Source: Escherichia coli | Lineage (GTDB): Bacteria > Pseudomonadota > Gammaproteobacteria > Enterobacterales > Enterobacteriaceae | DNA length: 64,000 nucleotides | Reading direction: 5' to 3' (one strand) | Assembly: GCF_030013595.1 (NCBI RefSeq) | Contig: NZ_CP122768.1 | Shown: positions 10,566-57,590 of the stretch, in pieces | Numbering within the stretch: the stretch's first letter is position 1 | How the letters are laid out: the number at the start of each line of letters is the position of its first letter | Notes under the pieces: generated by a model | The model's input: the letters and a program-made list of their open reading frames with translations, nothing else | The model's database searches: none | Told to the model about the DNA's origin: nothing | Translations under genes and position numbers: made by a program

Positions 10566-12152
10566 TTAATGCTCGCGGGTCTGGTGGAACTGAACGTCCG
10601 GATAACGTTCCTGCGCCAGACGCAGGTTGACCATGCTGGTAGCGATGTAAGCGAGGTTATCGCCGCCATCAAGCGCCAGTTGGCTTTCGTTCTTACGCTT
10701 GAACTCTTCGAATTTCTTCGCGTCCGCACATTCTACCCAGCGGGCAGTGGCAACGTTGACTGACTCATACACTGCTTCAACGTTGTATTCGCTCTTCAGG
10801 CGCGCTACCACCACATCAAACTGCAGCACACCAACTGCACCAACGATCAGGTCGTTGTTGGAGATCGGACGGAACACCTGCACCGCGCCCTCTTCGGAAA
10901 GCTGTACCAGCCCTTTGAGCAGCTGTTTTTGCTTCAGCGGATCTTTCAGGCGGATACGACGGAACAGTTCCGGTGCGAAGTTCGGAATACCGGTGAACTT
11001 CATCATCTCCCCCTGGGTAAAGGTGTCACCGATCTGAATAGTGCCGTGGTTGTGCAGGCCGAGGATATCGCCCGGATACGCTTCTTCAACGTGCGAACGG
11101 TCGCCCGCCATAAAGGTCAGCGCGTCGGAGATCACCACATCTTTCGCGGTGCGCACCTGGCGCAGCTTCATGCCTTTTTCATATTTACCGGATACCACGC
11201 GCATAAACGCCACGCGGTCGCGGTGTTTCGGGTCCATGTTGGCCTGAATTTTAAATACGAAGCCGGTAAATTTGTCTTCGCTCGCTTCTACGGTACGGGT
11301 ATCAGTCTGACGCGGCATCGGCGCAGGTGCCCACTCCACCAGGCCATCCAACATATGATCGACGCCGAAGTTACCTAGCGCAGTACCGAAGAATACCGGA
11401 GTGATTTCGCCCGCAAGGAATAATTCTTTGTCGAACTCGTTAGACGCGCCTTTCACCAGTTCCAGTTCGTCACGCAGCTGCTGCGCCAGATCTTCACCAA
11501 CCGCAGCATCGAGATCCGGGTTATTCAGCCCTTTAACAATGCGGACTTCCTGAATGGTGTGGCCTTTACCACTCTGATAAAGATAGGTTTCATCTTTATA
11601 AAGGTGGTAAACGCCTTTAAACAGCTTGCCGCAGCCAATCGGCCAGGTGATCGGCGCACAGCCGATTTTCAGCTCGTTCTCAACTTCATCGAGCAGTTCC
11701 ATCGGGTCGCGGATATCACGGTCAAGTTTGTTCATAAAGGTGAGGATCGGCGTGTCACGCAGACGGGTAACTTCCATCAGCTTGCGGGTACGATCTTCAA
11801 CACCTTTTGCGGCGTCGATAACCATCAGGCAGCAGTCCACCGCCGTCAGGGTACGATAGGTATCTTCCGAGAAGTCTTCGTGCCCCGGGGTGTCGAGCAG
11901 GTTAACCAGGCAATCGTGATACGGAAACTGCATCACAGACGTAGTAATGGAGATCCCACGCTGCTTTTCCATCTCCATCCAGTCCGACTTAGCGTGCTGG
12001 TTGGAACCACGGCCTTTTACTGTACCGGCGGTCTGAATGGCCTGTCCGAACAGCAGCACCTTCTCGGTGATGGTAGTCTTACCGGCGTCTGGGTGAGAAA
12101 TAATTGCAAAGGTTCTTCTTTTCGCTACCTCTGCGGCCAAAAGGCTTGTCAT
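10566..12152 (-). CDS. prfC: peptide chain release factor 3 (RF3); 5' end replaced by prophage attR sequence
   Basis: Translation [25 protein letters not shown]... matches PrfC; N-terminus here is [16 protein letters not shown] versus my recollection [17 protein letters not shown] for E. coli K-12, with the K-12-type 5' end found displaced at 57451-57501. Confidence 0.92.
12091..12104. repeat. attR core (direct repeat GGGTGAGAAATAAT)
   Basis: Identical 14-mer at 57437-57450; flanking sequence diverges between host and phage on each side. Confidence 0.65.
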
Positions 12153-12172
12153 AATTGTTGTCTCGTTGATTA

Positions 12173-12287
12173 TGTACAATCATATGTACAAAGAAAAATT
12201 CATGCCGCTGATTGTACATTTTGGAGGTATCAGAGCATAGCAGAACATGATCAGTAGGTGTATTTGTAGCCAAAGCTCATTTGTACA
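12173..12287. repeat. cluster of four TGTACA hexamers (putative integrase arm-type sites, attR arm)
   Basis: TGTACA at 12173, 12185, 12213 and 12282 in A/T-rich context just inside the prophage; similar cluster at the attL arm. Confidence 0.35.
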
Positions 12288-12306
12288 TGCCGCAATCTTC
12301 GTTCTA

Positions 12307-12356
12307 TTGACACTGTTTATTCACCCAGTTAAAAATAAGACTGTATACAAACACAG
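12307..12356 (+). promoter_or_regulatory. putative sigma70 promoter with LexA (SOS) box
   Basis: TTGACA at 12307-12312; CTGTATACAAACACAG (CTGT-N8-ACAG) at 12341-12356, immediately upstream of the dinI-like ORF. Confidence 0.6.
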
Positions 12357-12371
12357 TATAGAGGGAATTTT

Positions 12372-12591
12372 ATGCGTATTGAGATCTGCATAGCCAAAGA
12401 GAAAATGACTAAACTGCCAAACAGCGCTGTGGATGCGTTAGAAGGAAGAATTAACCCGACGCACCGGTAAGCGTTATGAAGATGTAGAGGTGATCGTAAA
12501 AGCCACCAGCAATGATGACCTTTCTGTTACACGCACCGCCGATAAAGATTCAGTTAAAATTTTTGTTCAGGACACTCTGAAAGATACCTAG
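12372..12591 (+). pseudogene. DinI-like protein gene, apparently frameshifted
   Basis: Frame 1 gives [23 protein letters not shown] then stops at 12468; an overlapping frame continues [49 protein letters not shown] to 12591; together they resemble DinI. Confidence 0.6.
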
Positions 12592-12644
12592 GAATTTGCT
12601 GACGAGTGATTTAGTTCATCATCTCTGGACACAATTCACTTGTA

Positions 12645-12673
12645 TTGACTTTAAGATCATTAAATTGTAATAA
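12645..12673 (+). promoter_or_regulatory. putative promoter of the membrane-protein/RT operon
   Basis: TTGACT at 12645-12650 and a TG-extended A/T-rich -10-like element about 17 bp downstream; AAGGA Shine-Dalgarno before the ATG at 12683. Confidence 0.4.
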
Positions 12674-12682
12674 TTCAAAAGG

Positions 12683-13387
12683 ATGGGGCAGTTTTTTCCT
12701 CTTGCGTATGCAAGGGCGGCTCTGATAATGAACAGTAATATTTTACTGTTGAGCTTATGCTCACTGATCCTGCCGAGCAGGATGTTCAACGGTTCCAATA
12801 TATCCTGCCCCTTCCGCTTTTTAAAAGGATATTTTATGCATGAAAATATTTGGTTTACATATAAAGCCCGTATTCAAGCGCACCATAGACTAGAATGGCT
12901 TGAAAAACACTCTCAATTTATCCTCGTTTGGTATGCTATATTGAGTGCGGTACTTTCAATTATAACGTTACGATTTCCAAAATTTCTAGGAGATAATACA
13001 GATATCGTTGCGGCAATACTTTCAGTGGCTCTACTGGGTATTTCTCTGATCGTATCTAACCTAGATTATCGTGGTCGAGCAATAGCCATGAGAAGGAATT
13101 ATATTGCACTACAGAGACTCTATTTTGATATTAATAACGGCCAACAGTTAACTCTTGAACAGAAAGAAAAATATTTTAATTTGCTCAATGAGGTTGAGAA
13201 TCATCGTGACATAGATGATAAAGTTTCAAGGGTAACTCAAGTTGGACTTACGACTAGACTCCCCACACAAAAAGAAAAAATAATTGTTAAATTATGGATA
13301 TTACGTCGAATGTTTATTACTGTCGGCCTTTATATCCTCCCATTAATATGTCTTTGGATTGACTATGAATGCAAGCAGAGTTTTTAA
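12683..13387 (+). CDS. multi-helix membrane protein, partner of the reverse transcriptase
   Basis: 234-aa ORF with hydrophobic segments (ILLLSLCSLILPS, FILVWYAILSAVLSIITL, IVAAILSVALLGISLIVSNL, ITVGLYILPLICLWI); overlaps the RT gene; alternative start at 12836 also has an SD. Confidence 0.7.
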   Translation: MGQFFPLAYARAALIMNSNILLLSLCSLILPSRMFNGSNISCPFRFLKGYFMHENIWFTYKARIQAHHRLEWLEKHSQFILVWYAILSAVLSIITLRFPKFLGDNTDIVAAILSVALLGISLIVSNLDYRGRAIAMRRNYIALQRLYFDINNGQQLTLEQKEKYFNLLNEVENHRDIDDKVSRVTQVGLTTRLPTQKEKIIVKLWILRRMFITVGLYILPLICLWIDYECKQSF

Positions 13388-14735
13388 AAAGTCATTCTCG
13401 AAAAAAAACCTTCTAAAAGTATACAATGAAAAAATCAAAGAATCAGGAGCGATTGGCATAGATCGGATTCGTCCATCAAAACTTGATTTAACAATAAAGA
13501 ATGAGATCACTTTTATTTTTGAAAAGGTTAATTGTGGAAATTATAAATTTACAGCATATAAAGAAAAATTAATATCTAAAGGGGCTAACTCTATCCCCAG
13601 ACAGATTTCCATACCAACTGCCAGGGACAGAATTACCCTTAGGGCTCTCTGTGAATGCCTTACAGAAATATATCCTAACTCCAGATTAAAACTACCACAT
13701 ACAGTAATTGACTTATTGAAAAATGCATTAAACAGCGATCTATATGCTGAATATGCAAAAATAGATCTCAAAAGTTTCTATCCTTCAATTGAACATAAAT
13801 TGATATTTAATGCAATAAAAAATAAGATTAGAAAAAAAGAAATTAGGCAGTTAATAACATCATCATTAATCGTGCCTACTGTAAGTGGAAGTACAGGAAG
13901 CAAAGGTGTCCCTAATAATACCAGAGGAGTACCTCAGGGGTTAGCAATATCAAACATTTTAGCTGAAATATCACTATCTGATTTCGACAATGAAATCAAT
14001 AAAATGCATGACATATGGTACATGCGATACGTTGATGACATTCTTATTTTAACGCAAAAAGATCAAGCAACAAAAATTGCATCTCATATCATTGATAAGC
14101 TTCAATCATTAAATTTAAACCCACATCCATTAAATGAAGAGAACTCAAAATCCAAAGTAGGCAGCTTGGATGAAAGTTTCAACTTTTTGGGCTACCACAT
14201 AAAAAATCGAGAATTATTGATAAAACATGAGAGCATTCTTAGATTTGAGTCATCCTTAGCAAAAATTTTTACTGCATATAGACACGCTCTACTACAAGCT
14301 AAAAATAAGCGCGATAAAGAACGAGCTGTTGCATATTGTCAGTGGAAACTAAATCTTAGAATTACGGGGTGTGTGTTTGAAGGTAAACGATTGGGATGGG
14401 TATCGTACTTCTCACAAATAACGTCAACAGCTCAACTTCGAGCTGTTAATCATACGATCAATAATCTTATCCGCCGATTCGGCCTTTCATCAGAAATAAA
14501 ACCAAAGTCTTTGATTAAAACTTTCTATGAACTCCGCAGGGGTAGAGCGGAGACTTTTAAATACATACCTAACTTTGACAATCTACATATATCTCAGAAA
14601 CGAGAAATTGTTTCTATGTGGATAGGGAAAGAGAATGAAAAAAAACTTAGCAATAGTGAAATAGAGAGAAAATTTAAATTTAAAATTGCGAAATCAGTAA
14701 AAGAGCTTGAAGAGGACATTTCAGGGATATCATAG
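13365..14735 (+). CDS. reverse transcriptase (Abi/retron-like, family unassigned)
   Basis: RT motifs in canonical order: KIDLKSFYPSIEH, GVPQGLAISNILAEISL, YMRYVDDILIL, FNFLGYHI, plus a ~170-aa C-terminal extension; ATG at 13365 (TTG at 13359). Confidence 0.88.
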   Translation: MNASRVFKKSFSKKNLLKVYNEKIKESGAIGIDRIRPSKLDLTIKNEITFIFEKVNCGNYKFTAYKEKLISKGANSIPRQISIPTARDRITLRALCECLTEIYPNSRLKLPHTVIDLLKNALNSDLYAEYAKIDLKSFYPSIEHKLIFNAIKNKIRKKEIRQLITSSLIVPTVSGSTGSKGVPNNTRGVPQGLAISNILAEISLSDFDNEINKMHDIWYMRYVDDILILTQKDQATKIASHIIDKLQSLNLNPHPLNEENSKSKVGSLDESFNFLGYHIKNRELLIKHESILRFESSLAKIFTAYRHALLQAKNKRDKERAVAYCQWKLNLRITGCVFEGKRLGWVSYFSQITSTAQLRAVNHTINNLIRRFGLSSEIKPKSLIKTFYELRRGRAETFKYIPNFDNLHISQKREIVSMWIGKENEKKLSNSEIERKFKFKIAKSVKELEEDISGIS

Positions 14736-14847
14736 ATATGTAATCCATTAAATCCTTTATATATAAAGCAATAAACACACTATTTAAATTCACAAATCAG
14801 CCGCAGTATCCTGCCATGACAAGTTGCTGCGGCATATCACAAAACGA

Positions 14848-15432
14848 TTACTCCATAACAGGGACCGCAGGCCACTCAATATCAGGTGCAGTTGATGTAT
14901 CAACACGGTTCAGCAACACCCGATACTTTTTCCAGGCTTCCAGCAATGAGTTTTCTTCCTCCGTTGCGATTTCCAGATCTACAGCATCCTGAAGTGGCGC
15001 AATATGCTCACTGGCTACCTGCATCAGGTTGTTTTTTGTTTCTTCCGCCTCCCGGATCCGGAACAGTTTTTCTGCTTCCGTATCCTTCAACCAGGCTGTG
15101 CCGTTCCACTTCTGATATTCCCCTTCCGGCGATAACCAGGTAACATTTTCCGGTAACGGACCGAGTTCAGAAATAAATAACGCGTCGCCGGAAGCCACGT
15201 CATAAACCGTTTTACCCCGATGATCTTCAACGAGATGCCACGATGACTCATCACTGTTGAAAACAGCCACGAAGCCAGCCGGAATATCTGGCGGTGCAAT
15301 ATCGGTACTGTTTGCTGGCAGACCTGTATGAGGCGGAATATATGCGTCACCTTCACCAATAAATTCATTAGTTCCGGCCAGCAGATTATAAATTTTTATG
15401 GTCCGTGGTTGTTCACTCATTCTGAATGCCAT
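14848..15432 (-). CDS. tfa: tail fiber assembly protein
   Basis: 194-aa translation [37 protein letters not shown]... matches lambda Tfa as recalled. Confidence 0.92.
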
Positions 15433-18400
15433 TATGCAAGCCTCACAATATAGTTAAATGCGATGTTTTTGACGGTGTTTTCCGCGTTACCAGCAGCGTT
15501 AACGGTGATGGTGTGTCCATGTGAACCAATCGCAACGGAGTGCGTGTGTGCACCAATACCGACAGTATGTGCGTGTGCACCTGCAGATGCTGCTGTGCCG
15601 GACAGTGAGTGGCTATGGTTACCATCTGTACTGGTATTAGCTAACGCCCCCGTAGACATACCTACTGAGCCTTGTACACCCCAGGTATTTTGACCTGAGC
15701 TTGTATAACCATATTGATAAGTATCTTTAAAAACACTGGGGTTAAATCGACGGCCATCTCTATGGCTGTGATTACCAGCTGCATTCGTGCTGCCACTTAA
15801 ACTATGGGTATGCGCACCAGTGTTATTCGTGGATTTAGTGCCGTAATCAAACGACGATGTGGTTTTCGTCCCCAAATCAGTACTGGATGCGCTGGCGCTG
15901 TGGGTATGCGATTTTATGCCGTCCTGTTCCTGAGACAATACGGCACGACCACTGGCGGGCTTGCCCTTAATCGTCCAGCCACGCATATCAGGGATCACGC
16001 CTGACGGATAAGCGGCTGCAAGTTTCGGGTAGGCAGATTTGTCAAAAGTCTGCCCCTGCATCAGGGCATAACCAGACGGAACGGTATCTGATGGCCACGG
16101 AATTGGTGCGCCAACTGGGTAGCTTTCTGGTGGAAGATTTTTCGAGGTATAAACTTCTGCCCAGCCTTCCTCAAAACCATAGCCATCTCTTGAGGAACGG
16201 TAGAACAGACCTCCATTTCTGTAATGCGCCTTCATCTGCAGGGTCCGGCAACTTCCGACTCCGGTATAGAAGTTAACCAGAATATAGCTGTCGCCAGAGC
16301 GGGTGACATTGTAAGCGCCTGATTCGGCATTCCAGGGAACGCCACCATCCGCATCGGCATATGTATCCGTTGCCCTTCTGGCAAAAGCAGCCACATGCGC
16401 GGCGGTTAAAGTAATATCTTTTGAACCATCAAACTCAACCCCAGAAACCAGTCTTGGCGTTTGCAGCTTTGTTGCTGTCAATGCGTTACCGTTCAGACTT
16501 GCAGACAGTTTGGTTCCAATAACCAGTTCGCCGGTTGCGTTATCAATAGCAAACGGTCTTAATGTATTCCAGCCACCATAAACATCACCTTGATTGGTAA
16601 GCAGCAGGTAAGTTTTAGCGCCATCATTACGCCATAATGCCCCATACTCCCCACCTATCATTCGAATCTGATTACCACCACGCGCTACAATTTCGTCTGT
16701 GGCAAAAAGTTTTTTGCACGACAAGTTATCGTTAACGATTAACGAATGGGACTCATAAAAACCACGCCCACTCTTAAAATCAAGGATAACGTCCGCCGCG
16801 ATACATTCAGTCGCCGGATTTGTTGCCCCAAACTTATAGGTCGTATCATTAACAACGAGATCAGCACCAGGTGCGGATATTGACAGGCCATCTTCGATAA
16901 ACGCAAAAACAGGGAAAGCAGCGCCATCAACATAGAACACAGAGCGCAAATCATCGCCCTTATTACTCATCATTATTGAGTGGATGGCTCGTTCATTGTT
17001 TTGATATTGCCAGAACATTCCATAAGCATAACGCCCCCTGTCAGTCCAGCCACCAGGCATAACAAATCCGTTAAACTCGCAGTTATTCATCGGATCGCCT
17101 GCGGTTCTCGTTGCCGTGGTGATAATGACCCTTGATGCCAGTTCGCTTACTGAGCCAGCAGAACGCATAACAACAACAGGGTAATATTTTCCAGATGTTG
17201 CACCTGCAGGAGCGTTAACCCGCACATAACGCATACCACGCTTATCAGCAAAGTCTGTTTTACTGACCGCGTTAATGTTGTTCAGGAAGCGTCCCTTATC
17301 GGGTATATCAGCGCCGTTCTGGTCTTTCTGCAGACGTTTCTCTGCATTGTCATAGGCTGATTTTACTGCCTTTGGCGTTGCCGCCAGCGTTTCAGACGAA
17401 CTGTTGGTCGCACAGCTGAGCTGTACTATCCCCTTTTTCGTCGTACTTGCATCCTCAAGCGCCACGGCGGATGCAATATCCTCTGCCCGTTTTGCCGCTG
17501 TCTCGGCGCGCGTTGCCGCGGATTCCGCCGTACTTTTGCTCTGTGCTGCCGCCGTCGCACTGCCAGCTGCCTCTGTCGCCTTCGTGGATGCTGTCGTGGC
17601 GCTGCCCTTCGCTGCGGACGCTTGTCTGGTCGCCTCATCTTTTGAAGCAGACGCCGATGATGCCGATGACGCCGCCGAACTGGCGGACGATGCAGCTGCC
17701 ATTTTTGAGGATTCTGCGCTGGTTTCCGACGCTTTCGCGTTCGTCTCGGATGTCTTCGCTGCGGAAGCAGACCTCGCTGCTGCGCTGGCCTGTTCAGTGG
17801 CTTCGCCAGCCTTCGTTGTGGCTGTTGAAGCAGACGATGCGGCACTTTCTGCCGATTTTCCGGCGGCGGTGGCACTGGCTGAGGCCTGCCCGGCACTTGT
17901 TGACGCGGCACTGGCAGACGACGCAGCCGCTGTTTTTGAGCCTGCCGCAGCCGAGGCGCTCTGTCCCGCTGCCGTTTCAGAAGACCTGGCGTTTGTCTCA
18001 GACGTCTTTGCCGCCTTCGCGGAATTGCCTGCCGCCGTTGCCGAGGAAGCGGCACTACTGGCGCTTGATGATGCGTTCGTTTCTGATGATTTCGCTGCCT
18101 CTTTTGAGGCCGCCGCATCCCGGGCTGAGGTGGCTGCTTCTGACGCCTTCGTGGTCGCGGCGGATGCAGAAGTTGCTGCTGATTGTTGTGACGCTGCCGC
18201 ATTCGTTTCTGACGTTTTCGCCGCAGCGGCACTGGTAGCTGCCGCGCTTTTTGAGGACTCTGCAGCAGCAGCACTTTTCGATGCTTCACTGGCCTTTGTT
18301 GATGCCGTTCCTGCGCTGGAAGATGCTGACTGAGCCGACGACGCGGCCTGTCCGGCTGACGTGCTGGCTGCGCGTGCTGAGCCTGCAGCATCAGTCGCAT

Positions 18401-18836
18401 GGGTTGCCGCCTCACGGGCTGATGTGCAGGCATCGCTGGCTGACTTCTTCGCGGCTGCCGTGTTCTGTGCCACCGCGGACGCGTTACGCGCCACCTCTTC
18501 CACCATCAGTTCAAAACGGCGCAGTGCCTCAGGACGGGCATCATCCTCCGTCATGGCACCGAGAAAATCATTCAGCGTACCGGGTCGGGAATCTTCATAC
18601 ACGGTGATGGTCCCGGCATGTGACGGCGGGAATCCCTCCACCAACAGAATAACGCTGTACTGCCCGTACTCAACGTCCATGCTGTAACGCCCGGCTTCAT
18701 CCGGATTTTCTGAGGCCAGCGTGTTCACCACCACCGTGGTGCTGTTACGTTTTGCTTTCAGCTGGATTGTGCAGTTCTGTACCGGTTTTCCTGTGCCGTC
18801 TTTCAGTACACCTGAAATCTTTACTGCCATATTCAC
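15432..18836 (-). CDS. stf: side tail fiber protein
   Basis: N-terminus [26 protein letters not shown] as in lambda Stf; long Ala/Ser-rich repeat region; C-terminal HxH repeats (GAHTHS, GNHSHS, GAHAHT, GSHGHT) and NYIVRLA end. Confidence 0.9.
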
Positions 18837-18837
18837 C

Positions 18838-18868
18838 CCACAAAAAAGCCCGCCTGAACCGGCGGGCT
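18838..18868 (-). terminator. rho-independent terminator downstream of lom
   Basis: AGCCCGCC / GGCGGGCT stem followed on the minus strand by TTTTTT. Confidence 0.5.
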
Positions 18869-18894
18869 GTCATAACACTGTGTTACCTGGCTAA

Positions 18895-19494
18895 TCAGAA
18901 TTTATAACCGACACCCACAATGAAACCGTCAGTGCGCCAGTCACCACTGCCGGAGCCTTCATAAGCAATATCAATGGCCACGGATTCGGTCGGGTTAACC
19001 TGCACGCCAGCTCCCCACGCCAGAGACGTGTTGCTGTGGCGACCGTCATCACTTCCGGTCAGCACGTCGTGCGTTTTCCCCTTGTTGTCAGTTACGCGGA
19101 GATAATCCCCGGAGAAAGTCGACACACGGCTGTAAGCCACACCCGCCATCGCATACGCGCTGAACCATTCATTCACGCGCACAGACGGCCCCGCCATTAC
19201 GCTGAACCAGCGGTTACGAACGGAATCTTCATGCCAGCTGGTATCGCTGTAATGCGTTTTTTGCTCATCTCCAGCGTTGGCATAACTGAATGACGTAATC
19301 AGCCCCAGCGTGTCCGTAAACTCATAACGGTATTTCACGTTAATCCCGTTCAGATTATCGCTGCCGGGAGCGTTCGTACGGGCATGAAGATACCCTGCGC
19401 TCAGTGTGGCCTGCTGCTCAGACGCCCATGCAGGCGCACCGGATACGGCCAGACAGATGGCTGCGGACAAAATGGCTGCACAAACTTTACGCAT
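18895..19494 (-). CDS. lom: Lom-like outer membrane protein
   Basis: 199-aa ORF with signal peptide (MRKVCAAILSAAICLAVSGAPAWA), C-terminal VGVGYKF, Ail/Lom-type beta-barrel. Confidence 0.88.
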   Translation of the reverse strand: MRKVCAAILSAAICLAVSGAPAWASEQQATLSAGYLHARTNAPGSDNLNGINVKYRYEFTDTLGLITSFSYANAGDEQKTHYSDTSWHEDSVRNRWFSVMAGPSVRVNEWFSAYAMAGVAYSRVSTFSGDYLRVTDNKGKTHDVLTGSDDGRHSNTSLAWGAGVQVNPTESVAIDIAYEGSGSGDWRTDGFIVGVGYKF

Positions 19495-19517
19495 AATTAC
19501 CTCTCGCTTTTCTGCAA

Positions 19518-19543
19518 TAAAAAAGGCGCCATTTCTGGCGCCC
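19518..19543 (-). terminator. rho-independent terminator downstream of J
   Basis: GGCGCC-ATTTCT-GGCGCC hairpin followed on the minus strand by a T-run; position corresponds to a post-J terminator. Confidence 0.55.
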
Positions 19544-19561
19544 GTATATGGGTTATAAAAT

Positions 19562-22500
19562 TCAGCTGATACTGATGCCTGCGGTGGCTTTCTTCATCAC
19601 CACAACCAGCAAATCGCTGATACTTGCTGTGGGATACCAGTCATTTACCAGCCATGATGACACCGAAAACTCCAGCGTCATGTGGCCGCGACCAGCTGGC
19701 ATATCAATAACACCACTGTAAATCAGCGTATTATCCAGCGCGGTACGGTTATAAATTTCAGCACCGTTTTTCCGTACTATCAGGCGGCATGACGAATAAA
19801 TATCGTTATTCTCCCTCTCATGTTTAGCGCCGCTGAATGCCACCGCCGGAATAACAATCTGCCGGTCAAACGGCTGATCGTCATAAACCCTGACGGTGAT
19901 GGTCCCTGATGGCCACCGTTCCGGTGCACGGGAGTCCCGGGGGAAAGCTTTGCCCACTGTTTTAACGAGATCGCCTTCAATCTGGTTGGCGGACAGTTTT
20001 CCCAGAACCCGACAGTTCTCGTTAATCGTGACGTTGTTGAGCGTCCCGGAGTTCGCATTCACGTTACCGCTGATATCGGCATTTTTCGCCGTCAGCCGCC
20101 CGTCCGGTGTCAGGGAAAATACCGGAGGATTACCGCCGCTGGTAATGGTGGGAGCCGTCAGGCGTTTCAGGAACACGTCGTTCATGAATATCTGATCGCC
20201 CTGCCCAACAAACATCGGCTTTGTGTTGCCATTCGCAGGATTAATCATCGCAATCCTGTCTGCCGCCAGCAGCACCTGACTCTGCATGCCGTCAGGGGTG
20301 TTCTCAATACCGGCACCAATACCCGCGATATAAAGGCGTCCGTCCTGCATCTGCTGCAGCTTCACAGCCCACATGCTGTTCAGGTTATTATTTGTATCAA
20401 CCTGAACCTGCTGTATCTGCTGAATTGCCGCACTCTGGTCTTCCAGTTTCTTATTGACGGTCTGCGTGATTTCATTGCTGACATCCGTAATGGACGTCCT
20501 GATTTCAGCCAGGTCAGGCGCAAGCTGACCGTTATCAATCTGCGTCCACAGCTCCTGAGCCAGATGGGTTTTCCCTATCTCGCCTTTGAAAAAATCCAGA
20601 TAGCCGGATGCGTCATCACTCGGCTGACCAACAGCCTCCACGAATGCCGATTTGCCAACGGTGTTCACACTGCGAACGTAAAAATAATAATTATGGCCCG
20701 GCCTGATATTGATACTGGCGGCTATCCAGTACAGCGCCGTGCCAAGATAGCGTGCTGTGGTTTCAACCTGCCTGATATCCGCAATCCGCTTTTCCGAGAA
20801 CCAGAACTCAAACTGTACCGTCGGATCATAAACCGCAAGATGCGGCGTGGCGGTTATCTGAAAATAGCCCGGCGTCAGCTCAATCCGCGACGGCGCTGCC
20901 GGTGCGGCAATCCGGAACGATACCGACGCCGGATCGCCCTGCTGCCCCCACGCATTTACTGCCCGGACTGTCAGCCTGTAGTTCCCCAGCGCCAGTTGTG
21001 TGAAGCAGTAAGTGGTTTCCGTCGTCCGGGCCGTGCTGACCAGCCGCTCACTGCCGTCATCCGCTGCCACGGTCAGGCGAAGCAGGAAGCTCACGCCCTT
21101 CACCACCTTCGGCGTGTCCCAGCGCGCCAGCACCTGATATTCCCCGCTGTCTGCGGTGACTTCGGCAGTCAGGTGCTGCACTGCTGGCGGCGTGACACCA
21201 TTCACCGTGGCGCTCTGGTCACCGTCAAAGTGCGCCCCGTTATCCACGATGGCTTCTTTTTCCGGTACATGCTGCACGGCGGTGATGGCATACGTGCCGC
21301 CGTCGTTCTCACGGATACTCACGCAGCGGAACAGGCGCTGGCGCAGCGTCGGCAGCTTCAGCCCCCACACGCTGTATTCAGCAACACCGTCAGGAACACG
21401 GCTCACTTTCACCTTCACGCCGTCGGTGACGGACTGAACCTCCACGCTGACCGGATTGCCACTTCCGTCAACCAGGCTTATCAGCGTGGTACCGGAGGAT
21501 GGCAGCGTGATTTCACGGTCGAGCGTCAGCGTCCGGGTCTGGCTGTTCACCGCCAGCACGCGCCCGCCGGTGCTGATACCGGCATAGTCATCATCGCAGA
21601 TTTCAATGACATCGCCCGGTACATGGCGAAGCCCCTCAGCACCCACGCTGAAGTCCACGGTCTGCGTTTCCAGCAGCTCCGTTTTAATCAGCCACAGCCC
21701 GGCGCGGTGTGCCTGCCCCCGGCTGGTACAGCCAAAGGCATCCATCTTCGTGACGTTACGACCGTAACGGACAATGGCCTGCGTATCCTCCACAAGCTCT
21801 GTCGCCGTCTCCTGGCCGTTGTTCGGGTCAATCCAGTTCACCTCAACGGCATTATGGCGGTCCTTCAGGGCGCTGAAGCTGTAGCGGAACGGCGCGCCAT
21901 CATCCGGCATCACCACATTACTGCGGTTATAGGTCCACACCTTATCCGACGGTCGGTCCTGCACGAACGTCAGCGTCTGCCCGTTCCATACCGGCATACA
22001 GCGCATCGCCGAGCAGAAATCACTGAGTACATCCCACGCCTTGCGCTGTGTGGTCAGGTAAGCGTTACAGGTGATGCGCGGCTCCGTGCCGCCAGAGCCG
22101 TCCGGCACCAACTGGTCGCAGTACTGACCGATGACATACAGTGCCCATTTATCCACATCTGCCGCACCAAGACGTTTCCCCATGCCGTAGCGCGGATGGG
22201 TCAGCATATCCCACAGACACCAGGCCATGTTGTTGCTGTATGCTGGCTTTAACGTTCCGTCCCAGATACCGCTGTATTGCCGCGTCTGCGGGTTATAGTT
22301 CGACGGCACCTGCAGAATGCGCCCGCGAAGATGATAATTACGGCTCACCTGCTGGCTGCCGAACTGCTCCGAGTCCACCTGCACGCCAACCAGTGCCGTG
22401 TTCGGGTAGCACTGTTTCACATCGATGATTTCGGTGTATGACGACCAGAGCGTTTTGTTCTGCAGCTGGTCTGTGGTGCTGTCCGGCGTCATCCTGCGCA

Positions 22501-23041
22501 TCCGGATATTAAACGGACGCGGCGGCAGATTATCCACCACTACCGAGGCCAGATACTGCGAGGTGGTTTTGCCCTTAATGGTGATGTCTTTTTCCGTCAC
22601 CCAGCCACCGTTACGCTGTATCTGAACCAGCAGGCGAACTTCCGACGGATTCCGGTCCCCCTTTGAGGTGGTTTCCACCAGTGCCTGCACGCCGAAAGTA
22701 AAACGCAGACGGTCAATGTTTGCCGACGTGATGGTCCGGGTGATCGGCGTGTCATATTTCACTTCCGTACCCAGCACCGTCTCGGAGCCGGAGGATTCAA
22801 ACCCCTCCGGCGGTATCTGCTCCTGCTCACCGGCCCGGAACACCACCGTGACACCGGAGATGTTGGTATTCCCCTCACTGTCCAGCACCGGCGTGCTGTT
22901 CAGCAGCACGCTTTTTAATCCATCCACCGGACCTTCAATCGGCCCTTCGCTGATTGCATCAATCACACTCAGCAACTGCGTGGACTTCAGATTGTCCTTC
23001 GCTTCGCGCGGGGTATGCCCCTTACTGCTGCCTTTACCCAT
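19562..23041 (-). CDS. J: host specificity / central tail fiber protein J
   Basis: 1159-aa ORF in the lambda J position and of similar size. Confidence 0.92.
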
Positions 23042-23101
23042 GTCTCAGACCCCATAAACGACAAAACCGCCCGAAGGCGGTTTCACATAAAACATTTTGC
23101 A

Positions 23102-23749
23102 TCAGCGACCAATCACCACAACCGGACCACCGTCCCCTTCATCTGCCGTGCTGATCTCCTGAGAAACCACACGAGACCCCACACGCATTTCACCGTACAG
23201 AACGGGCAGAACATTGCCCTGGGCAACCATGTTATCCAGTGACGAGAAATACGTGTTCTGTTTGCCGTTATCTGTACTGGCTGCCGTGGGCGTCCTGGCT
23301 TTCGGTGCCAGCATCTGCGCCACACCACCCAGGATCATACTGGCCCCTGCTGCATACAGACCCGATACAGCCGCGGCCCCCAGCCAGCCAACAGGGCTCC
23401 ACCATGCCACCGCAATCAGCGCCGCACCCAGCACCGCCTGAAACACACCGCCACTTTTGGCACCCGCCAGACGCGGCACGATGTGGATCACGGCACCATT
23501 TGCCAGCGGCTCATTAAGACGGGCAGACAATTCGGTTTCACCTGCATCACGCCCGGCAATGCGTACCTGGTACCAGCCGTCGCTCAGTTTCTGACGAAAC
23601 GCCGGGATCTGCATAGCCAGCGCCCGGATGGCTTCGGCCCCCGTTTTCACTCGAAGGTCGATGCGGCGGCCAAATCGTTGTAAATCCCCGTAAAGGCAGA
23701 TGCGTGCCATGCCCGGTGACGCCAGAGGGAGTGTGTGCGTCGCTGCCAT
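23102..23749 (-). CDS. I: tail assembly protein I
   Basis: MAATHTLPLASPGMARICLYGDLQRFGRRIDLRVKTGAEAIRAL... matches lambda gpI. Confidence 0.9.
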   Translation of the reverse strand: MAATHTLPLASPGMARICLYGDLQRFGRRIDLRVKTGAEAIRALAMQIPAFRQKLSDGWYQVRIAGRDAGETELSARLNEPLANGAVIHIVPRLAGAKSGGVFQAVLGAALIAVAWWSPVGWLGAAAVSGLYAAGASMILGGVAQMLAPKARTPTAASTDNGKQNTYFSSLDNMVAQGNVLPVLYGEMRVGSRVVSQEISTADEGDGGPVVVIGR

Positions 23750-24390
23750 TTGTCGGTGTACCTCTCTCGTTTGCTCAGTTGTTCAGGAATATGGTGCAGC
23801 AGCTCGCTGTCACCACAGTAAATGGCGGCATGATTCGGCACCGATGAACCAAAACAGCACAGCAGCACATCGCCCGGCTGCGCCGCTGACAACGGCACCT
23901 GATACAGCCCTGTGGCCTCCAGATTATCCAGATAGAGATTCTGACCGTTACGCCACCAGTCATCCCCGCGATGAAAATCCGGCATCTCAATCCCCGCCAG
24001 ATGGTAAGCATCCCGGAACAGCGTGTAACAGTCCGTCACCCCGTGCTCAAAGCGCCGCCCGGTGAGATGCGGCACACAGCGGAATTTATGAATCTCACCC
24101 CGGCAGACCAGCCACCACGGCAAATCACTCTGCACCTGCAGCCGCCGGTCAGCCTCACTCAGCCAGGGCAGACCACCGGGGTGGCTGTGGACCAGCGCCA
24201 CAATCTCACCCTGCATTTCTGCCCGCAGCCAGTCCTCCGGCGACATCCGGAAATACTCCTCCGGCTCACCGGAGATATTCACGCAGGGAAAATATCTTTC
24301 TCCCTCCGGCGTTCTCACCACGAAGCCGCACGACTCCGCTGGCGCACATCGCCGGGCGTGCGCCAGAATCGCTGATTCTGTTTCTGTCAT
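23647..24390 (-). CDS. K: tail assembly protein K (NlpC/P60-like)
   Basis: MTETESAILAHARRCAPAESCGFVV... in the lambda K position; overlaps I. Confidence 0.88.
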   Translation of the reverse strand: MTETESAILAHARRCAPAESCGFVVRTPEGERYFPCVNISGEPEEYFRMSPEDWLRAEMQGEIVALVHSHPGGLPWLSEADRRLQVQSDLPWWLVCRGEIHKFRCVPHLTGRRFEHGVTDCYTLFRDAYHLAGIEMPDFHRGDDWWRNGQNLYLDNLEATGLYQVPLSAAQPGDVLLCCFGSSVPNHAAIYCGDSELLHHIPEQLSKRERYTDKWQRRTHSLWRHRAWHASAFTGIYNDLAAASTFE

Positions 24391-24395
24391 GGGAT

Positions 24396-52973: not shown

Positions 52974-53593
52974 TGACCACATTTACCGATAAAGAACTGA
53001 TTAAAGAAATCAAAGAACGAATCAGCAGCCTAGAGGTTCGAGACGATATTGAGCGCCGTGCTTATGAAATTGCTCTGGCATCGCTAGAAGAGGAGCCGGT
53101 GGCATGGCTGCATTCAGAAAATGGCTTAGGTATTCCGGCAATAACGAGGAGTAAAAACATTGCTGACAGTTGGTTATCAAAGGGCTGGTATGTTCAGCCG
53201 CTATATATAGCCAAGCCAGTGCCGGTGGTGCCAGATGCTCGTCCGTCTTTAAATAATGGCATAGTCGGTTTTGATGAAGGCTGGAACGCCTGCCGCGCCG
53301 CCATGCTTCATGGTGCCGAACCTGTAAGCCAGACTTACAAGTTGAACAAGCTGTCGGGCAACTCTCCAGTAACTCCGGATGGTTGGATAAGCTGTAGTGA
53401 GCGAATGCCGAACGATAAACAGTATGTTTGGTGTTGGGGGAAGCCTTACGGCTGGACTGAGTGCGATACCTTCGAAGGGTATTACGATTGGTCGAGAAAC
53501 AAATGGTGGGCAGTTACTGACGATAGGGAAGAACCGGCATCGAAAGTAACCCACTGGATGCCGCTACCGGAGCCGCCGCAGGAGGTGAAGTAA
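52973..53593 (+). CDS. DUF551 domain protein
   Basis: C-terminal VTHWMPLPEPP motif typical of DUF551 proteins in lambdoid early-left regions. Confidence 0.5.
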   Translation: MTTFTDKELIKEIKERISSLEVRDDIERRAYEIALASLEEEPVAWLHSENGLGIPAITRSKNIADSWLSKGWYVQPLYIAKPVPVVPDARPSLNNGIVGFDEGWNACRAAMLHGAEPVSQTYKLNKLSGNSPVTPDGWISCSERMPNDKQYVWCWGKPYGWTECDTFEGYYDWSRNKWWAVTDDREEPASKVTHWMPLPEPPQEVK

Positions 53594-53787
53594 TGAACAA
53601 CTTAATGACAACTAAACAAGTCGCCGACTTCTGTGGCGTTTCAGTATCGACTGTTCTTCGCTGGAACAGCGTAAACAGGAGAACTGGCCAGAAATACAGG
53701 CCTGACTTTCCAGATCCTGATATTAAATCCTGCCCAAATAAATGGGCATCACGCAAGATATACAGATTTGCTGGAGTTATTGAGTAA
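53593..53787 (+). CDS. AlpA/excisionase-like small HTH protein
   Basis: 64-aa ORF, TTKQVADFCGVSVSTVLRW HTH-like segment, near the integrase end. Confidence 0.45.
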   Translation: MNNLMTTKQVADFCGVSVSTVLRWNSVNRRTGQKYRPDFPDPDIKSCPNKWASRKIYRFAGVIE

Positions 53788-54025
53788 CGTGTATTATCTC
53801 AGATGGGAGCTGACATATCTATGGCACAGACCAAACTAATCTGACAGTCAAGTCTGTGCCAAGAGCAAACGTTGCTAATTTAATGTTAAGTTGTTTCTCT
53901 TGAAGACGATCACGCTATGATACAACCTATAAAATTATCGATATCTGAGAGAACCAGTAAAAAGTTTAAGTCAAGGGTTCTATAAGTGTGTTAATTTATT
54001 GGGAAGCAATAAGCTTCCCTTCTCT

Positions 54026-55726
54026 TTATTTAGGTACGCTATCAACACTTTTGAGAATCGTTGATGTTAAAGGCTGCGACTTTAGTAAGTCTCGAGAAAT
54101 ATCCGGATCTGGTATAGCTATTTTTACTAAACTCTCAAGTTTTTCAAACCACTCCCCATCATTCATTGAGAATAAGTTATGAAGAGCTTCATTTTTATTT
54201 TTGAACCCCCAAGCCTTATAATTATTACCACAGTATTTTGACGCAGCAGTTAGAATATGCCAGCGTAATTTTGAATACTTCCCATCAAACCTCTTATTTG
54301 AGATAAGAGCCTTTAGCCTATACAAGCAATAGCAAGATATATAATAATCATCCTCGAGGGCATCGGAAGAGAAAACCTCATTAAGTAAGTCACCAGTTAA
54401 CCTATTTGGATAACGACTGGAATAATCTGGTCTCATCATAACAATAGCAGCATATGCTCGCGCAACTTCTCTGATATCAAATATGCGTACTGGAGCTATA
54501 CTTTCTGAACTATACTGCCCCTTTCTTCTCTCAAAATAAATTTTATTTCCTTCAATAGCACCTTTAGCATTAAAATAATGTTCTAATTCCCTTAATTTTT
54601 TTAGCGTTGAAATGAACTGTGCATCTTCAACTTTAGATTGTCTATTCGTAGCTCGTACAATGTCATCAAGGATCGCTGGCTCATCGGTTTCAATTAATTT
54701 AATCATTAAACTAACTGATTCATCTACTTGAATGTCTTTTGATATAAGAACATTAGACGTTTGACATCCATTAACAATTTGAAAATCTCGTATAAAAATT
54801 TCTTGCCCTGCAGGCCTCACGCTTGATGCAACTATTGTCACTCCATTATTCATTAAACCAAATCTTGCTTTTTTTCCATCAGTATCTAGTGTTCCTGCAA
54901 TTTCTGAATTTACGTCACCATCAATTCCCAGAAAATCTCTAACATTTTCTTCGAATAATTTTTTTCGAGGGTTTCCATTTTTGTCTTTAAGTATAGAATC
55001 AATAAAACTACGAGCTTTGACTGTAGCTACATAGGCATTATTAATATTAGGGGCCGCTGGGAATGGAGCATAGCCTATTGTAGGAAGTTTAGCTTCTATT
55101 GGACCTTCCGCAGCAAGCCAAAGCTCATGAATCATGTCTTTGTGAGCCATAATGAAGGATGTTTCATGTGAAAACCCGAGTGACTTTAAGCTTTTTTCAC
55201 CCGATGCAAATGCAGCTTTTATTTCTCTGGCCTCTGTATTTTGTGCAGCACTAAAAAAATATGCGTATAAGTCTGGAAGGCCATTTTTGACTCTGCCGAT
55301 ATTAGCAAATATCAAGTTGAACATTTTTTTAAAGTCCGCTAGATATTCACTGTGGGGTTGTTGTGGCGCTGGTGAAAGATAATCTCTTATTGACGCAATG
55401 TAAGAGTCTATTTCCTGTTTGCTCCACTTCTCCGATGACTTAGCTTGCGTGAATACTAATGAAACTTGAAACTCGCGACGTGAGTTTTGGAAAATCTCCT
55501 GAAGTTCTTCAGTTGAAAAAATGGCTCTGTCGTCTAAAAATAAAAATGCTCCATCAATACCAGGGTCCGGGCCTTCATACACAAGATCACTGACCTCAAC
55601 TTTGTCGCCTGAGTATTTTGAAAAAGCACAATAGTTCACAAACGCCTCAAAATTTTTGGTCTCCTCATAGGGCGCAGCGAATGCTTTGCAAAAGGCATCG
55701 AAATAAGATTTCGTGACTAAATGCAT
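54026..55726 (-). CDS. AIPR-family abortive-infection-like protein (tentative)
   Basis: ~566-aa AT-rich ORF between AlpA-like gene and integrase; FQIVNGCQT motif as I recall for AIPR proteins; ATG 55726 preceded by AAAGGAG. Confidence 0.6.
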   Translation of the reverse strand: MHLVTKSYFDAFCKAFAAPYEETKNFEAFVNYCAFSKYSGDKVEVSDLVYEGPDPGIDGAFLFLDDRAIFSTEELQEIFQNSRREFQVSLVFTQAKSSEKWSKQEIDSYIASIRDYLSPAPQQPHSEYLADFKKMFNLIFANIGRVKNGLPDLYAYFFSAAQNTEAREIKAAFASGEKSLKSLGFSHETSFIMAHKDMIHELWLAAEGPIEAKLPTIGYAPFPAAPNINNAYVATVKARSFIDSILKDKNGNPRKKLFEENVRDFLGIDGDVNSEIAGTLDTDGKKARFGLMNNGVTIVASSVRPAGQEIFIRDFQIVNGCQTSNVLISKDIQVDESVSLMIKLIETDEPAILDDIVRATNRQSKVEDAQFISTLKKLRELEHYFNAKGAIEGNKIYFERRKGQYSSESIAPVRIFDIREVARAYAAIVMMRPDYSSRYPNRLTGDLLNEVFSSDALEDDYYISCYCLYRLKALISNKRFDGKYSKLRWHILTAASKYCGNNYKAWGFKNKNEALHNLFSMNDGEWFEKLESLVKIAIPDPDISRDLLKSQPLTSTILKSVDSVPK

Positions 55727-55982
55727 AAAAACTCCTTTCTGAAATAAGATAAGTTTATTAGAAACAACAAGATAAAGATAAAGATAATAGTAATACAAGT
55801 TAAAGACATACTGCATCACATAAGTTGGTCAAGATCAATAAATCAATAAGGATCCCCTATGTTTTATGTATTGTTGATAATTCTATCACCTCTTACTTCT
55901 GGTCTAAGCGTAACCTACTCAAGAATGCCATTGAAAATGTCCACTGTTCGCTCAAAACAGACTGTCAGGGCTACGCAAGCTG

Positions 55983-57206
55983 TCAGGTAGATTCTGGGCC
56001 AGTACAAGTAACGATCGATTCAACTCTCTCCCACCATGCCTGATATGCTTTACGCTGTTCTTCTAGATAATCGCTCTTGTCATAAACCTGCCAAACCCCT
56101 GGCAGTTTATGGCCGAGCATTATTTCTGCAATATGAGGAGCAGTAAGATCAGAAAAGTTTGTTCGTGCTGTTCGCCTCAAATCATGAAGAGACCAATGAG
56201 GGAATTGATGCCCCAAACGCCTCCATGCGTACTGCATTAAATTGTAAGGCAGCGACTGCAATGATGTTCGACCAACGGGTTCCCTGCTTCCTTCCTTAGT
56301 AAAAAGCATATCGGAACCATTGTTCATAGAGATAGCGTTCTTTATAAGCTCCTCCACCGGTTCAATAATGGGCCTCTTTAGCGGTTCGCCTGTTATCTCT
56401 CCAGTCTTATGTCGTTCTGGTGGTACAGTCCATACCTTATTAATGAAATCAAAATCGCCCACCCTGGCAGTAATTAGCTCTGAACTACGGCAGCCAAAAT
56501 GCAGCAATAGCTTAATGAAGGCCCGGTATTTAGGAACCATTCGAGAACCATCGATCGCAGAATAAAGGATTTTAATTTCATCATGTGTCAGAAACCGTTT
56601 CTTCTGACCTTTACGGATATCCATATCTTTACCCGTGATATCCGACAGCGGGCGAGTTTCAATGAGCTTTCTCTTATACGCCCAGACATGGGCCTGCTTT
56701 GCGTTAATTAGCAATCGGTCTGCTATTGCTGGAGTCTTAGTGCTAAGAGGCTCCAGGACTTCTAACCAATCATGCAATGTAGCTGCATCGTGAGGGATAT
56801 TCCCGATTTTAGAGAACAGGTGCAGCTCAAACGAGCGGAGTATCTGTTCAGAACCTTTTTTATTTTTTACACAATATGCTTCATACCAGGCACGGATCAC
56901 AGACTCTACCGTCATGGCTTCAGTAGCTTTTCGTTTTTCAGCCTGCTTGACCAATCGTGGATTACGGTTTGACTCAAGTTCACCACGGAGACGGATAACT
57001 TCTTCTCTGGCCTCTTTTAATCCAGTTGCCGGGTAAGTTCCGATATCAAGACGCTCACCTTTCCCTGCCCATTGATAACGATATTGGAACACTACGCGAC
57101 CTTTCGGTGATACTCTGACAGACAGACCATCACGATCGGATTTAACCAAAACCTTATCACGTTCCTTTCCAACGACTGAACGCAACCACGCATCAGACAA
57201 CGCCAT
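55983..57206 (-). CDS. int: tyrosine integrase (P4-like, N-terminal arm-binding domain)
   Basis: 407-aa ORF; N-terminal LSVRVSPKGRVVFQYRYQWAGKGERLDIGTYP; catalytic-region motifs LHDLRRTARTNF and IMLGHK. Confidence 0.9.
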   Translation of the reverse strand: MALSDAWLRSVVGKERDKVLVKSDRDGLSVRVSPKGRVVFQYRYQWAGKGERLDIGTYPATGLKEAREEVIRLRGELESNRNPRLVKQAEKRKATEAMTVESVIRAWYEAYCVKNKKGSEQILRSFELHLFSKIGNIPHDAATLHDWLEVLEPLSTKTPAIADRLLINAKQAHVWAYKRKLIETRPLSDITGKDMDIRKGQKKRFLTHDEIKILYSAIDGSRMVPKYRAFIKLLLHFGCRSSELITARVGDFDFINKVWTVPPERHKTGEITGEPLKRPIIEPVEELIKNAISMNNGSDMLFTKEGSREPVGRTSLQSLPYNLMQYAWRRLGHQFPHWSLHDLRRTARTNFSDLTAPHIAEIMLGHKLPGVWQVYDKSDYLEEQRKAYQAWWERVESIVTCTGPEST

Positions 57207-57225
57207 TACTCACCTTGTACAAATC

Positions 57226-57272
57226 GCAAAACACCTCTGCTGTTTTGTACATTATGTACAAGCATATGTACA
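57226..57272. repeat. cluster of four TGTACA hexamers (putative integrase arm-type sites, attL arm)
   Basis: TGTACA at 57226, 57246, 57255 and 57267, between the int start and the attL core. Confidence 0.35.
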
Positions 57273-57436
57273 GATTTTTGATGAAAGCAAACTGATCGAT
57301 TTAAAGTTACATGAAAGAATTTTCAATTAAAGAAGCCACATAACCAAATGTATTTAAATGAGTTATATAGCTCAAGCTCAATTAACTGAAAGGATTTTGA
57401 AAGAGTAAAAGAGCTTTAATTTGGGCTTAATTATTG

Positions 57437-57450
57437 GGGTGAGAAATAAT
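57437..57450. repeat. attL core (direct repeat GGGTGAGAAATAAT)
   Basis: Identical to 12091-12104. Confidence 0.65.
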
Positions 57451-57501
57451 GGCAAAAGTGCGGCGCTTCGCCACCTCTTGCAAATAAGGAGACAACGTCA
57501 T
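57437..57501 (-). pseudogene. displaced original 5' fragment of prfC
   Basis: Minus strand reads ATG ACG TTG TCT CCT TAT TTG CAA GAG GTG GCG AAG CGC CGC ACT TTT GCC ATT ATT TCT CAC CCC = [22 protein letters not shown], then diverges into phage sequence with a stop. Confidence 0.75.
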
Positions 57502-57590
57502 AATTCTTTCTTCTTGAGTAAGCGGCATCGCGCCGCGCTTGTTGAAAACGAAAAATTGCGGCTATTTTACCCATCAACGGGGGGAGGCAA

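Follow-up and report, generated by a model that had tools for sequence, protein, structure and literature searches.

How can a gene remain whole when some 45 kb of phage DNA stand inside the first part of its coding sequence? The question is raised by prfC, which encodes RF3, in the stretch of Escherichia coli DNA analysed here (64,000 nucleotides of contig NZ_CP122768.1, hereafter "the window"), where an uninterrupted prfC frame begins in phage DNA and a second, truncated prfC start stands at the far end of the element (Table 1). Very probably, a phage of the prfC-integrating lambdoid group has integrated at a short core sequence, its attachment site (attP) carries a surrogate prfC start that rebuilds RF3, and the TGTACA repeats near the core are putative arm sites for its integrase (Int). 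The arrangement is common and has been described before, and the element is a member of that phage group.

Table 1. Features at and within the interrupted prfC gene, by position in the window
Feature	Positions	Strand	Basis or remarks
Hybrid prfC (RF3, 528 aa)	10566..12152	-	Uninterrupted ORF; PGAP calls the same hybrid prfC in NCCP 15734
Core identity (crossover region), prfC-body junction	12091..12104		Repeat search and K-12 alignment
Phage-supplied surrogate 5' coding segment, 16 codons	12105..12152	-	Departs from K-12 right after the core
Lambdoid prophage, ~45.3 kb, between prfC and yjjG	12105..57436		NCCP 15734 annotation, ORF list, blastn
Phage arm upstream of hybrid prfC	12153..12300		Four TGTACA: 12173, 12185, 12213, 12282
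Promoter-like site TTGACA-18-AAAAAT before the dinI-like gene	12307..12356	+	Promoter scan match
dinI-like gene, frameshifted	12373..12590	+	Sequence; NCCP 15734 annotation
Excisionase, 64 aa, helix-turn-helix	53593..53787	+	phrog_1553 excisionase, E = 7.7e-36
Tyrosine integrase, 407 aa, arm-DNA-binding N-terminal domain	55983..57206	-	phrog_1 integrase; homologue domains
Phage arm between core and int	57207..57436		Four TGTACA: 57216, 57246, 57255, 57267
Orphaned native prfC start, 24-codon stub ending NN*	57427..57501	-	K-12-identical from 57437; ORF read
Core identity, int-side junction	57437..57450		Repeat search and K-12 alignment
Native yjjG-prfC intergenic region, with host prfC ribosome-binding site and presumed promoter	57502..57590	-	K-12 alignment

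The two ends of the element are marked by a 14-mer, GGGTGAGAAATAAT, which has exactly two copies in the window, at the places claimed for it in the preliminary description, and no chance match in 100 dinucleotide-preserving shuffles of the window. As the empty-site reference we took a K-12 strain in which osmY-prfC-yjjG-rimI is uninterrupted, and aligned this locus to both junctions. At the right junction the window is identical to K-12 from the core (57437) rightwards, through the native prfC start, the intergenic region and yjjG, and leftwards is unrelated to it; at the left junction it is identical to K-12 from the core leftwards, through the body of prfC, and rightwards of the core has diverged from K-12, yet still encodes a prfC-like start. 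This alignment to a prophage-free locus, which had been proposed as a check, finds host DNA reaching the core on both sides, and it bears out the claim that a prophage interrupts the 5' coding region of prfC, as each junction matches the empty yjjG-prfC locus up to the core. Base 12090, outside the repeat, is T in the window, C in K-12 and NCCP 15734, and G in the phage attP, and is thus a silent host polymorphism. A transposon-style target duplication was ruled out as the origin of the repeat, given the tyrosine integrase, the excisionase and a site that is fixed in hundreds of genomes.

A perfect 7-bp inverted repeat brackets the attP core, AATTATT-GGGGTGAGA-AATAATT (window 57424-57452); the host site, attB, has the right half only. 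The two halves of this repeat plausibly serve as the pair of core-type sites that Int binds on either side of the overlap region.

The hybrid gene opens with an ATG at 12152 on the minus strand; its first 16 codons are phage DNA and the remainder, 10566-12104, is host DNA, so that the intact 528-residue frame does start in phage-side sequence, as had been claimed. The hybrid measures 1587 bp (PGAP, NCCP 15734) against the 1590 bp of K-12 prfC, which in the locus alignment begins MTLSPYLQ. The surrogate begins instead with MTSLLAA, and the hybrid RF3, one residue shorter, departs from the native protein only at residues 3-8, one of them deleted. The surrogate's last nine codons spell EVAKRRTFA, the same as the native gene, even though 8 of their 27 nucleotides differ, every one of them synonymously (AGA AGA for the native CGC CGC among them). 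In simulation, eight random substitutions keep this peptide in 1 of 2,000,000 trials (~5e-7). Its retention despite so many synonymous differences argues for selection on the encoded protein. Because the phage brings a replacement for the first 16 codons, the gene stays whole.

The phage origin of the replacement N-terminus is seen in related phage genomes. To rebuild attP (542 bp), we placed the phage flanks of the two junctions on either side of the core, that of the right junction first, and compared the product with a phage collection. Phages 2H10 and cdtI match the rebuilt site collinearly over its full length and Ayreon over 85% of it, at 95-97% identity, which upholds the proposal that the phage attP carries a prfC 5' surrogate. 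In all three genomes the surrogate lies beside int, so that the replacement N-terminus is phage DNA, and in the free phage genome it forms a 23-codon mini-ORF reading toward int. The window and the three phages agree at every base of the segment but one, an Ayreon base just past the core; none of the eight TGTACA sites varies in this alignment, in contrast to the neighbouring arm sequence. The Ayreon base (L086:2746, corresponding to window 12105) is G, not T, which matches host attB and lengthens the attP/attB identity to 20 bp. Ayreon was propagated on K-12, and this G could have been left by an earlier cycle of integration and excision, or by heteroduplex repair.

The start that the host gene has lost is found at the other junction. 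The native ATG (57499-57501, minus strand) opens a stub that enters phage DNA and stops two codons later, and which PGAP marks in NCCP 15734 as a partial hypothetical protein. The minus strand on the int side does therefore still encode a truncated native prfC N-terminus, identical to that of K-12. The distance of 90 bp that had been given between this start and yjjG is correct for K-12 and not for the window, where a G-run one base shorter puts the yjjG stop codon 89 bp away. Also as described earlier, the presumed promoter of the orphaned start faces int, since prfC', the arm region and int share the minus strand. A terminator scan predicted no terminator between the orphaned start and int, which makes it plausible that host transcription reads through into int.

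Between the two cores lies a prophage whose late region is 98-99% identical by blastn to that of the prophage at the same site in NCCP 15734 (97-99% with int and the junctions). For the latter, RefSeq annotates tail fibre, Lom, J, tape measure, a head protease/capsid fusion, portal, terminase, lysis genes, antiterminator, repressor, xis and a tyrosine integrase, and the large ORFs that correspond to these genes are intact in the ORF list of the window. The NCCP 15734 annotation of the late region and the ORF map of the window together give a lambdoid virion, lysis and regulatory gene set; the element was rightly called a prophage, with lambda-like tail genes, portal, terminase, lysis cassette, antiterminator, repressor, int and xis.

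From 38200 to 55900 the window is a mosaic relative to NCCP 15734, with much of the lysis and early region unmatched or only patchily matched. At the prophage end beside prfC (12683-14735, plus strand), a gene for a SLATT-domain protein (PADLOC RTasSLATT, E = 2e-57) overlaps one for a UG17-class reverse transcriptase (RT_UG17, E = 8e-159); the pair, by these matches defence-type cargo, is annotated in NCCP 15734 as well, and phage cdtI has cdtABC at that position. An AbiU-like abortive-infection protein of 597 aa (PADLOC AbiU, E = 3e-111) is encoded between int and xis at 54026-55819 on the minus strand, where an unrelated gene for a 413-aa hypothetical protein stands in NCCP 15734, so that the int-adjacent position looks like a cargo hotspot. 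The dinI-like gene is frameshifted in the window and in NCCP 15734, whereas phages 2H10 and cdtI have it intact; before it, at 12341-12356 on the plus strand, stands a CTGT-N8-ACAG sequence, CTGTATACAAACACAG, a good LexA-box-like match to the consensus.

The integrase gene starts 230 bp from the core. Homologues of Int carry PF13356 (Arm-DNA-bind_3), PF22022 (Phage_int_M) and PF00589 (Phage_integrase), and Int has the features of arm-binding tyrosine recombinases of the P4/SXT type, with an arm-binding N-domain and core-binding and catalytic domains. When 14 homologues, down to 50% identity, are compared, the columns listed as conserved show R204, K232, R344, H366 and Y375 without variation and H341 almost without; these are the presumed catalytic R-K-H-R-H-Y residues. 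By tblastn, Int is 98.5% identical to the Ayreon integrase and 96.8-97.5% identical to those of Stx1a/Stx2c phages, and in IMG/VR it is found at 97-100% identity on 80 prophage contigs.

TGTACA repeats do lie in phage DNA upstream of prfC, as had been noted, and there are four of them; another four lie in the arm on the int side. These eight, of 14 in the window, form two clusters flanking the core, within ~170 bp. Over the whole window the hexamer is not enriched (14 copies against 11.6 expected), and only its concentration in the two arms is significant. There, copies in tandem are spaced by 12 bp, and both orientations occur. Most likely the N-terminal domain of Int binds these repeats as arm-type sites. 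The int-proximal copy overlaps the int ribosome-binding region, an overlap that suggests autoregulation of int through this putative arm site.

The same layout recurs in more distant relatives, in Salmonella (Int 84% identical), Xenorhabdus (64%), Pseudomonas (52%) and Shewanella (51%). In all four, prfC is cut at the same point of the native N-terminus and int lies ~230 bp downstream of the orphaned, cut prfC start; relative to the int ATG, each of the four genera has one GTACA overlapping the ribosome-binding region (-14 to -20) and several more clustered between -42 and -80. Scans of IMG/VR for the other junction, or for a contiguous attP, of these non-E. coli relatives recovered neither, giving only near-identical E. 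coli prophages or fragments ending at int; that surrogates occur more widely than in E. coli is a point supported by the SXT literature. Still further afield, the integrase of Klebsiella phage 5 LV-2017 (L095:1-235; 46% identity) has no prfC alongside; the phage sequence begins with ...FSIIAHID, which we take to be the start of lepA, and its repeats are of the GTCCAT type. In Moraxella phage Mcat15 (L094:1280-1510; 41% identity) prfC does not adjoin either: the integrase there comes after an orphan MMPTPSHLTTISIIGH, which looks like the beginning of a different P-loop NTPase, and the repeats are TGTGTACATAAT.

A temperate lambdoid phage of the cdtI/2H10/Ayreon/Stx1a-Stx2c(prfC) group has, on our reading, integrated by tyrosine-recombinase site-specific recombination at prfC codons 18-22 (I-I-S-H-P), just before the GTPase P-loop, with the crossover falling within GGGTGAGAAATAAT. 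Beside the core, its attP carries a diverged prfC start, that is, the start codon, 16 codons and whatever upstream signals are used, so that integration splices the surrogate onto the body of the host gene and rebuilds a full-length RF3. The native start, ribosome-binding site and promoter region stay behind at the other junction as the 24-codon stub facing int. The arm upstream of the hybrid start (12153-12300) must also hold any promoter or ribosome-binding site that serves the hybrid gene. We infer that hybrid prfC is expressed and functional.

Such junctions are widespread. Among 5426 complete E. coli genomes, the hybrid-junction query is covered in 699 and the int-side-junction query in 700 (~13%), these being two separate junction-specific queries, tallied independently and not paired per genome; the counts make both junctions equally frequent. 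Carriers include APEC O1 and O145:H28 strains. One hit whose match ended 9 bp past the core had hinted at another kind of prfC element, but on inspection the site was simply empty.

It could be argued that the frame is restored on paper only, prfC being effectively silenced in the lysogen and the loss tolerated as RF3 is dispensable. Upstream of hybrid prfC, a strict consensus scan of the minus strand gave no sigma-70 promoter, a relaxed scan gave weak matches (8-9 of 12) that overlap the TGTACA sites, and the Shine-Dalgarno sequence of the hybrid is weak. The strict scan gave no match on the relevant strand at either junction, whether for hybrid prfC, native prfC or int, and the sole candidate for the native prfC promoter, within 57502..57590, is a relaxed match, TTGCCT-15-TAAAAT; because such scans barely detect the native promoter either, their negatives carry little weight. 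Ogura et al. (2007; PMC2323221) state that expression of hybrid prfC is unknown and call prfC non-essential, from which an intact but silent ORF is possible, and Bobay et al. list prfC among prophage-disrupted genes (PMC3603311). Yet a segment that was never translated should not hold nine residues through eight substitutions, all of them synonymous and with the simulated frequency given above. Nor does silencing sit well with a surrogate that is identical across independently sequenced phages, bar the one Ayreon base, while the nearby arm varies, or with a hybrid ORF that is kept in ~13% of genomes; for SXT, moreover, the literature reports a promoter supplied at this same site. Silencing is thus, in our judgement, quite improbable. 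Virtually no credence can be given to the notion that MTSLLAAE is merely a host prfC allele, with the prophage just upstream and the 14-bp repeat a target duplication or a coincidence. Nothing speaks for it beyond an N-terminus that differs from K-12, and the presence of the surrogate beside int in free phage genomes already refutes it. The native start survives at the other junction, the junction counts match, and a search for a prophage-free prfC starting MTSLLAAE met only MTLSPYLQ, at every empty site inspected.

The part assigned to the TGTACA repeats must be weighed separately. They might be mainly promoter or operator elements, recognized by a phage regulator or forming part of the -10-like TGTACATAAT, rather than arm sites. 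TGTACA is palindromic, as many operators are, and TGTACATAAT includes CATAAT, a -10-like hexamer that precedes int as well as hybrid prfC. On the other hand, repeats on both arms, in mixed orientation and spaced by about one helical turn, form the classic arrangement of arm sites for Arm-DNA-bind integrases, and the repeats co-vary with Int across genera, the 46% identical relative having the GTCCAT type instead. An operator role as the main one is therefore unlikely, and the two roles are not exclusive.

A further possibility can be put forward, tentatively and with less than even confidence: that integration swaps promoters reciprocally between prfC and int, and that the Int lineage has retargeted among P-loop NTPase genes. 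In the free or excised phage, the phage promoter and the 23-codon surrogate leader would lie directly upstream of int and may drive it; once integrated, the phage signals may drive prfC, and the host prfC promoter and native leader may drive int. Expression of int may thus always be fed by a "prfC-type" leader, restrained only by Int binding to TGTACA over its own ribosome-binding region. As for the lineage, it may retarget among the 5' ends of such genes (prfC with IISHP, lepA with IIAHID, and the Moraxella one), and the retargeting seems to follow conserved coding sequence for the nucleotide-binding motif.

Little new biology is added by all this, prfC having long been recognised as the attachment site of SXT/R391 and of lambdoid, Stx and Cdt phages. 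The case does illustrate that a gene-rebuilding integration site can be recovered correctly by reading raw sequence. The level of hybrid RF3 expression in the ~13% of E. coli strains that are carriers has been an easily testable question since 2007, and the conserved GTACA arm repeats offer a handle for studying site recognition in this integrase family. With its ORF rebuilt, moreover, prfC is not well described as "disrupted", and surveys that count it so (e.g. PMC3603311) overstate the damage.

The closest known systems are the other prfC-integrating lambdoid phages (cdtI, AB285204; 2H10; Ayreon; the O103 Stx1 phage; the CC119 Stx1a/Stx2c phages). With these the window element shares Int at 97-98.5% identity, the same core, surrogate and TGTACA sites, a collinear attP, and lambda-like structural genes, and RF3 has its N-terminus replaced alike (K-12 alignment; PMC2323221). 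Ogura et al. (2007; PMC2323221) described how an Stx1 phage of O103 in prfC changes the N-terminus of RF-3, its integration removing the native prfC ribosome-binding site and promoter, and prfC is now a routine prophage locus in STEC lineages (PMC10132054; PMC8065619). It is in cargo and early region that the elements differ, the window having the UG17 reverse transcriptase with its SLATT partner, and the AbiU-like gene, in place of cdt or stx.

[quoted passage not shown] Insertion at this 5' end with a new N-terminus is thus common to both and does not by itself define the family; the SXT core may also cover the I-I-S-H-P-D codons of prfC. Whereas SXT/R391 are conjugative elements of ~100 kb whose int needs SetCD, the window element is a 45-kb phage, filled with phage structural, lysis and regulatory genes and with no tra, setCD or setR gene annotated; lacking a conjugation backbone, it is not SXT/R391, though alike at the attachment site. 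An integrase near-identical (~99%) to IntSXT would be expected of an SXT/R391 member; the cdt1-phage Int belongs, per the literature, to the same cluster and is not near-identical (PMC8138268).

Elements that target dusA (IMEVchUSA3 and its relatives) offer a parallel, in that the 5' end of a conserved gene is entered and its ORF restored with an altered N-terminus and a new promoter; target gene, integrase lineage and type of element all differ from those in the window. In phage 21 and e14, which integrate in icd, and in the phages of tRNA genes, attP holds a diverged duplicate of the interrupted end of the gene, and the target is rebuilt; Campbell's reviews of phage insertion sites are said to treat such cases. 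Those phages replace the 3' end of their target and so have no promoter or ribosome-binding site to supply, whereas the element in the window replaces the 5' end of prfC together with all of its expression signals.
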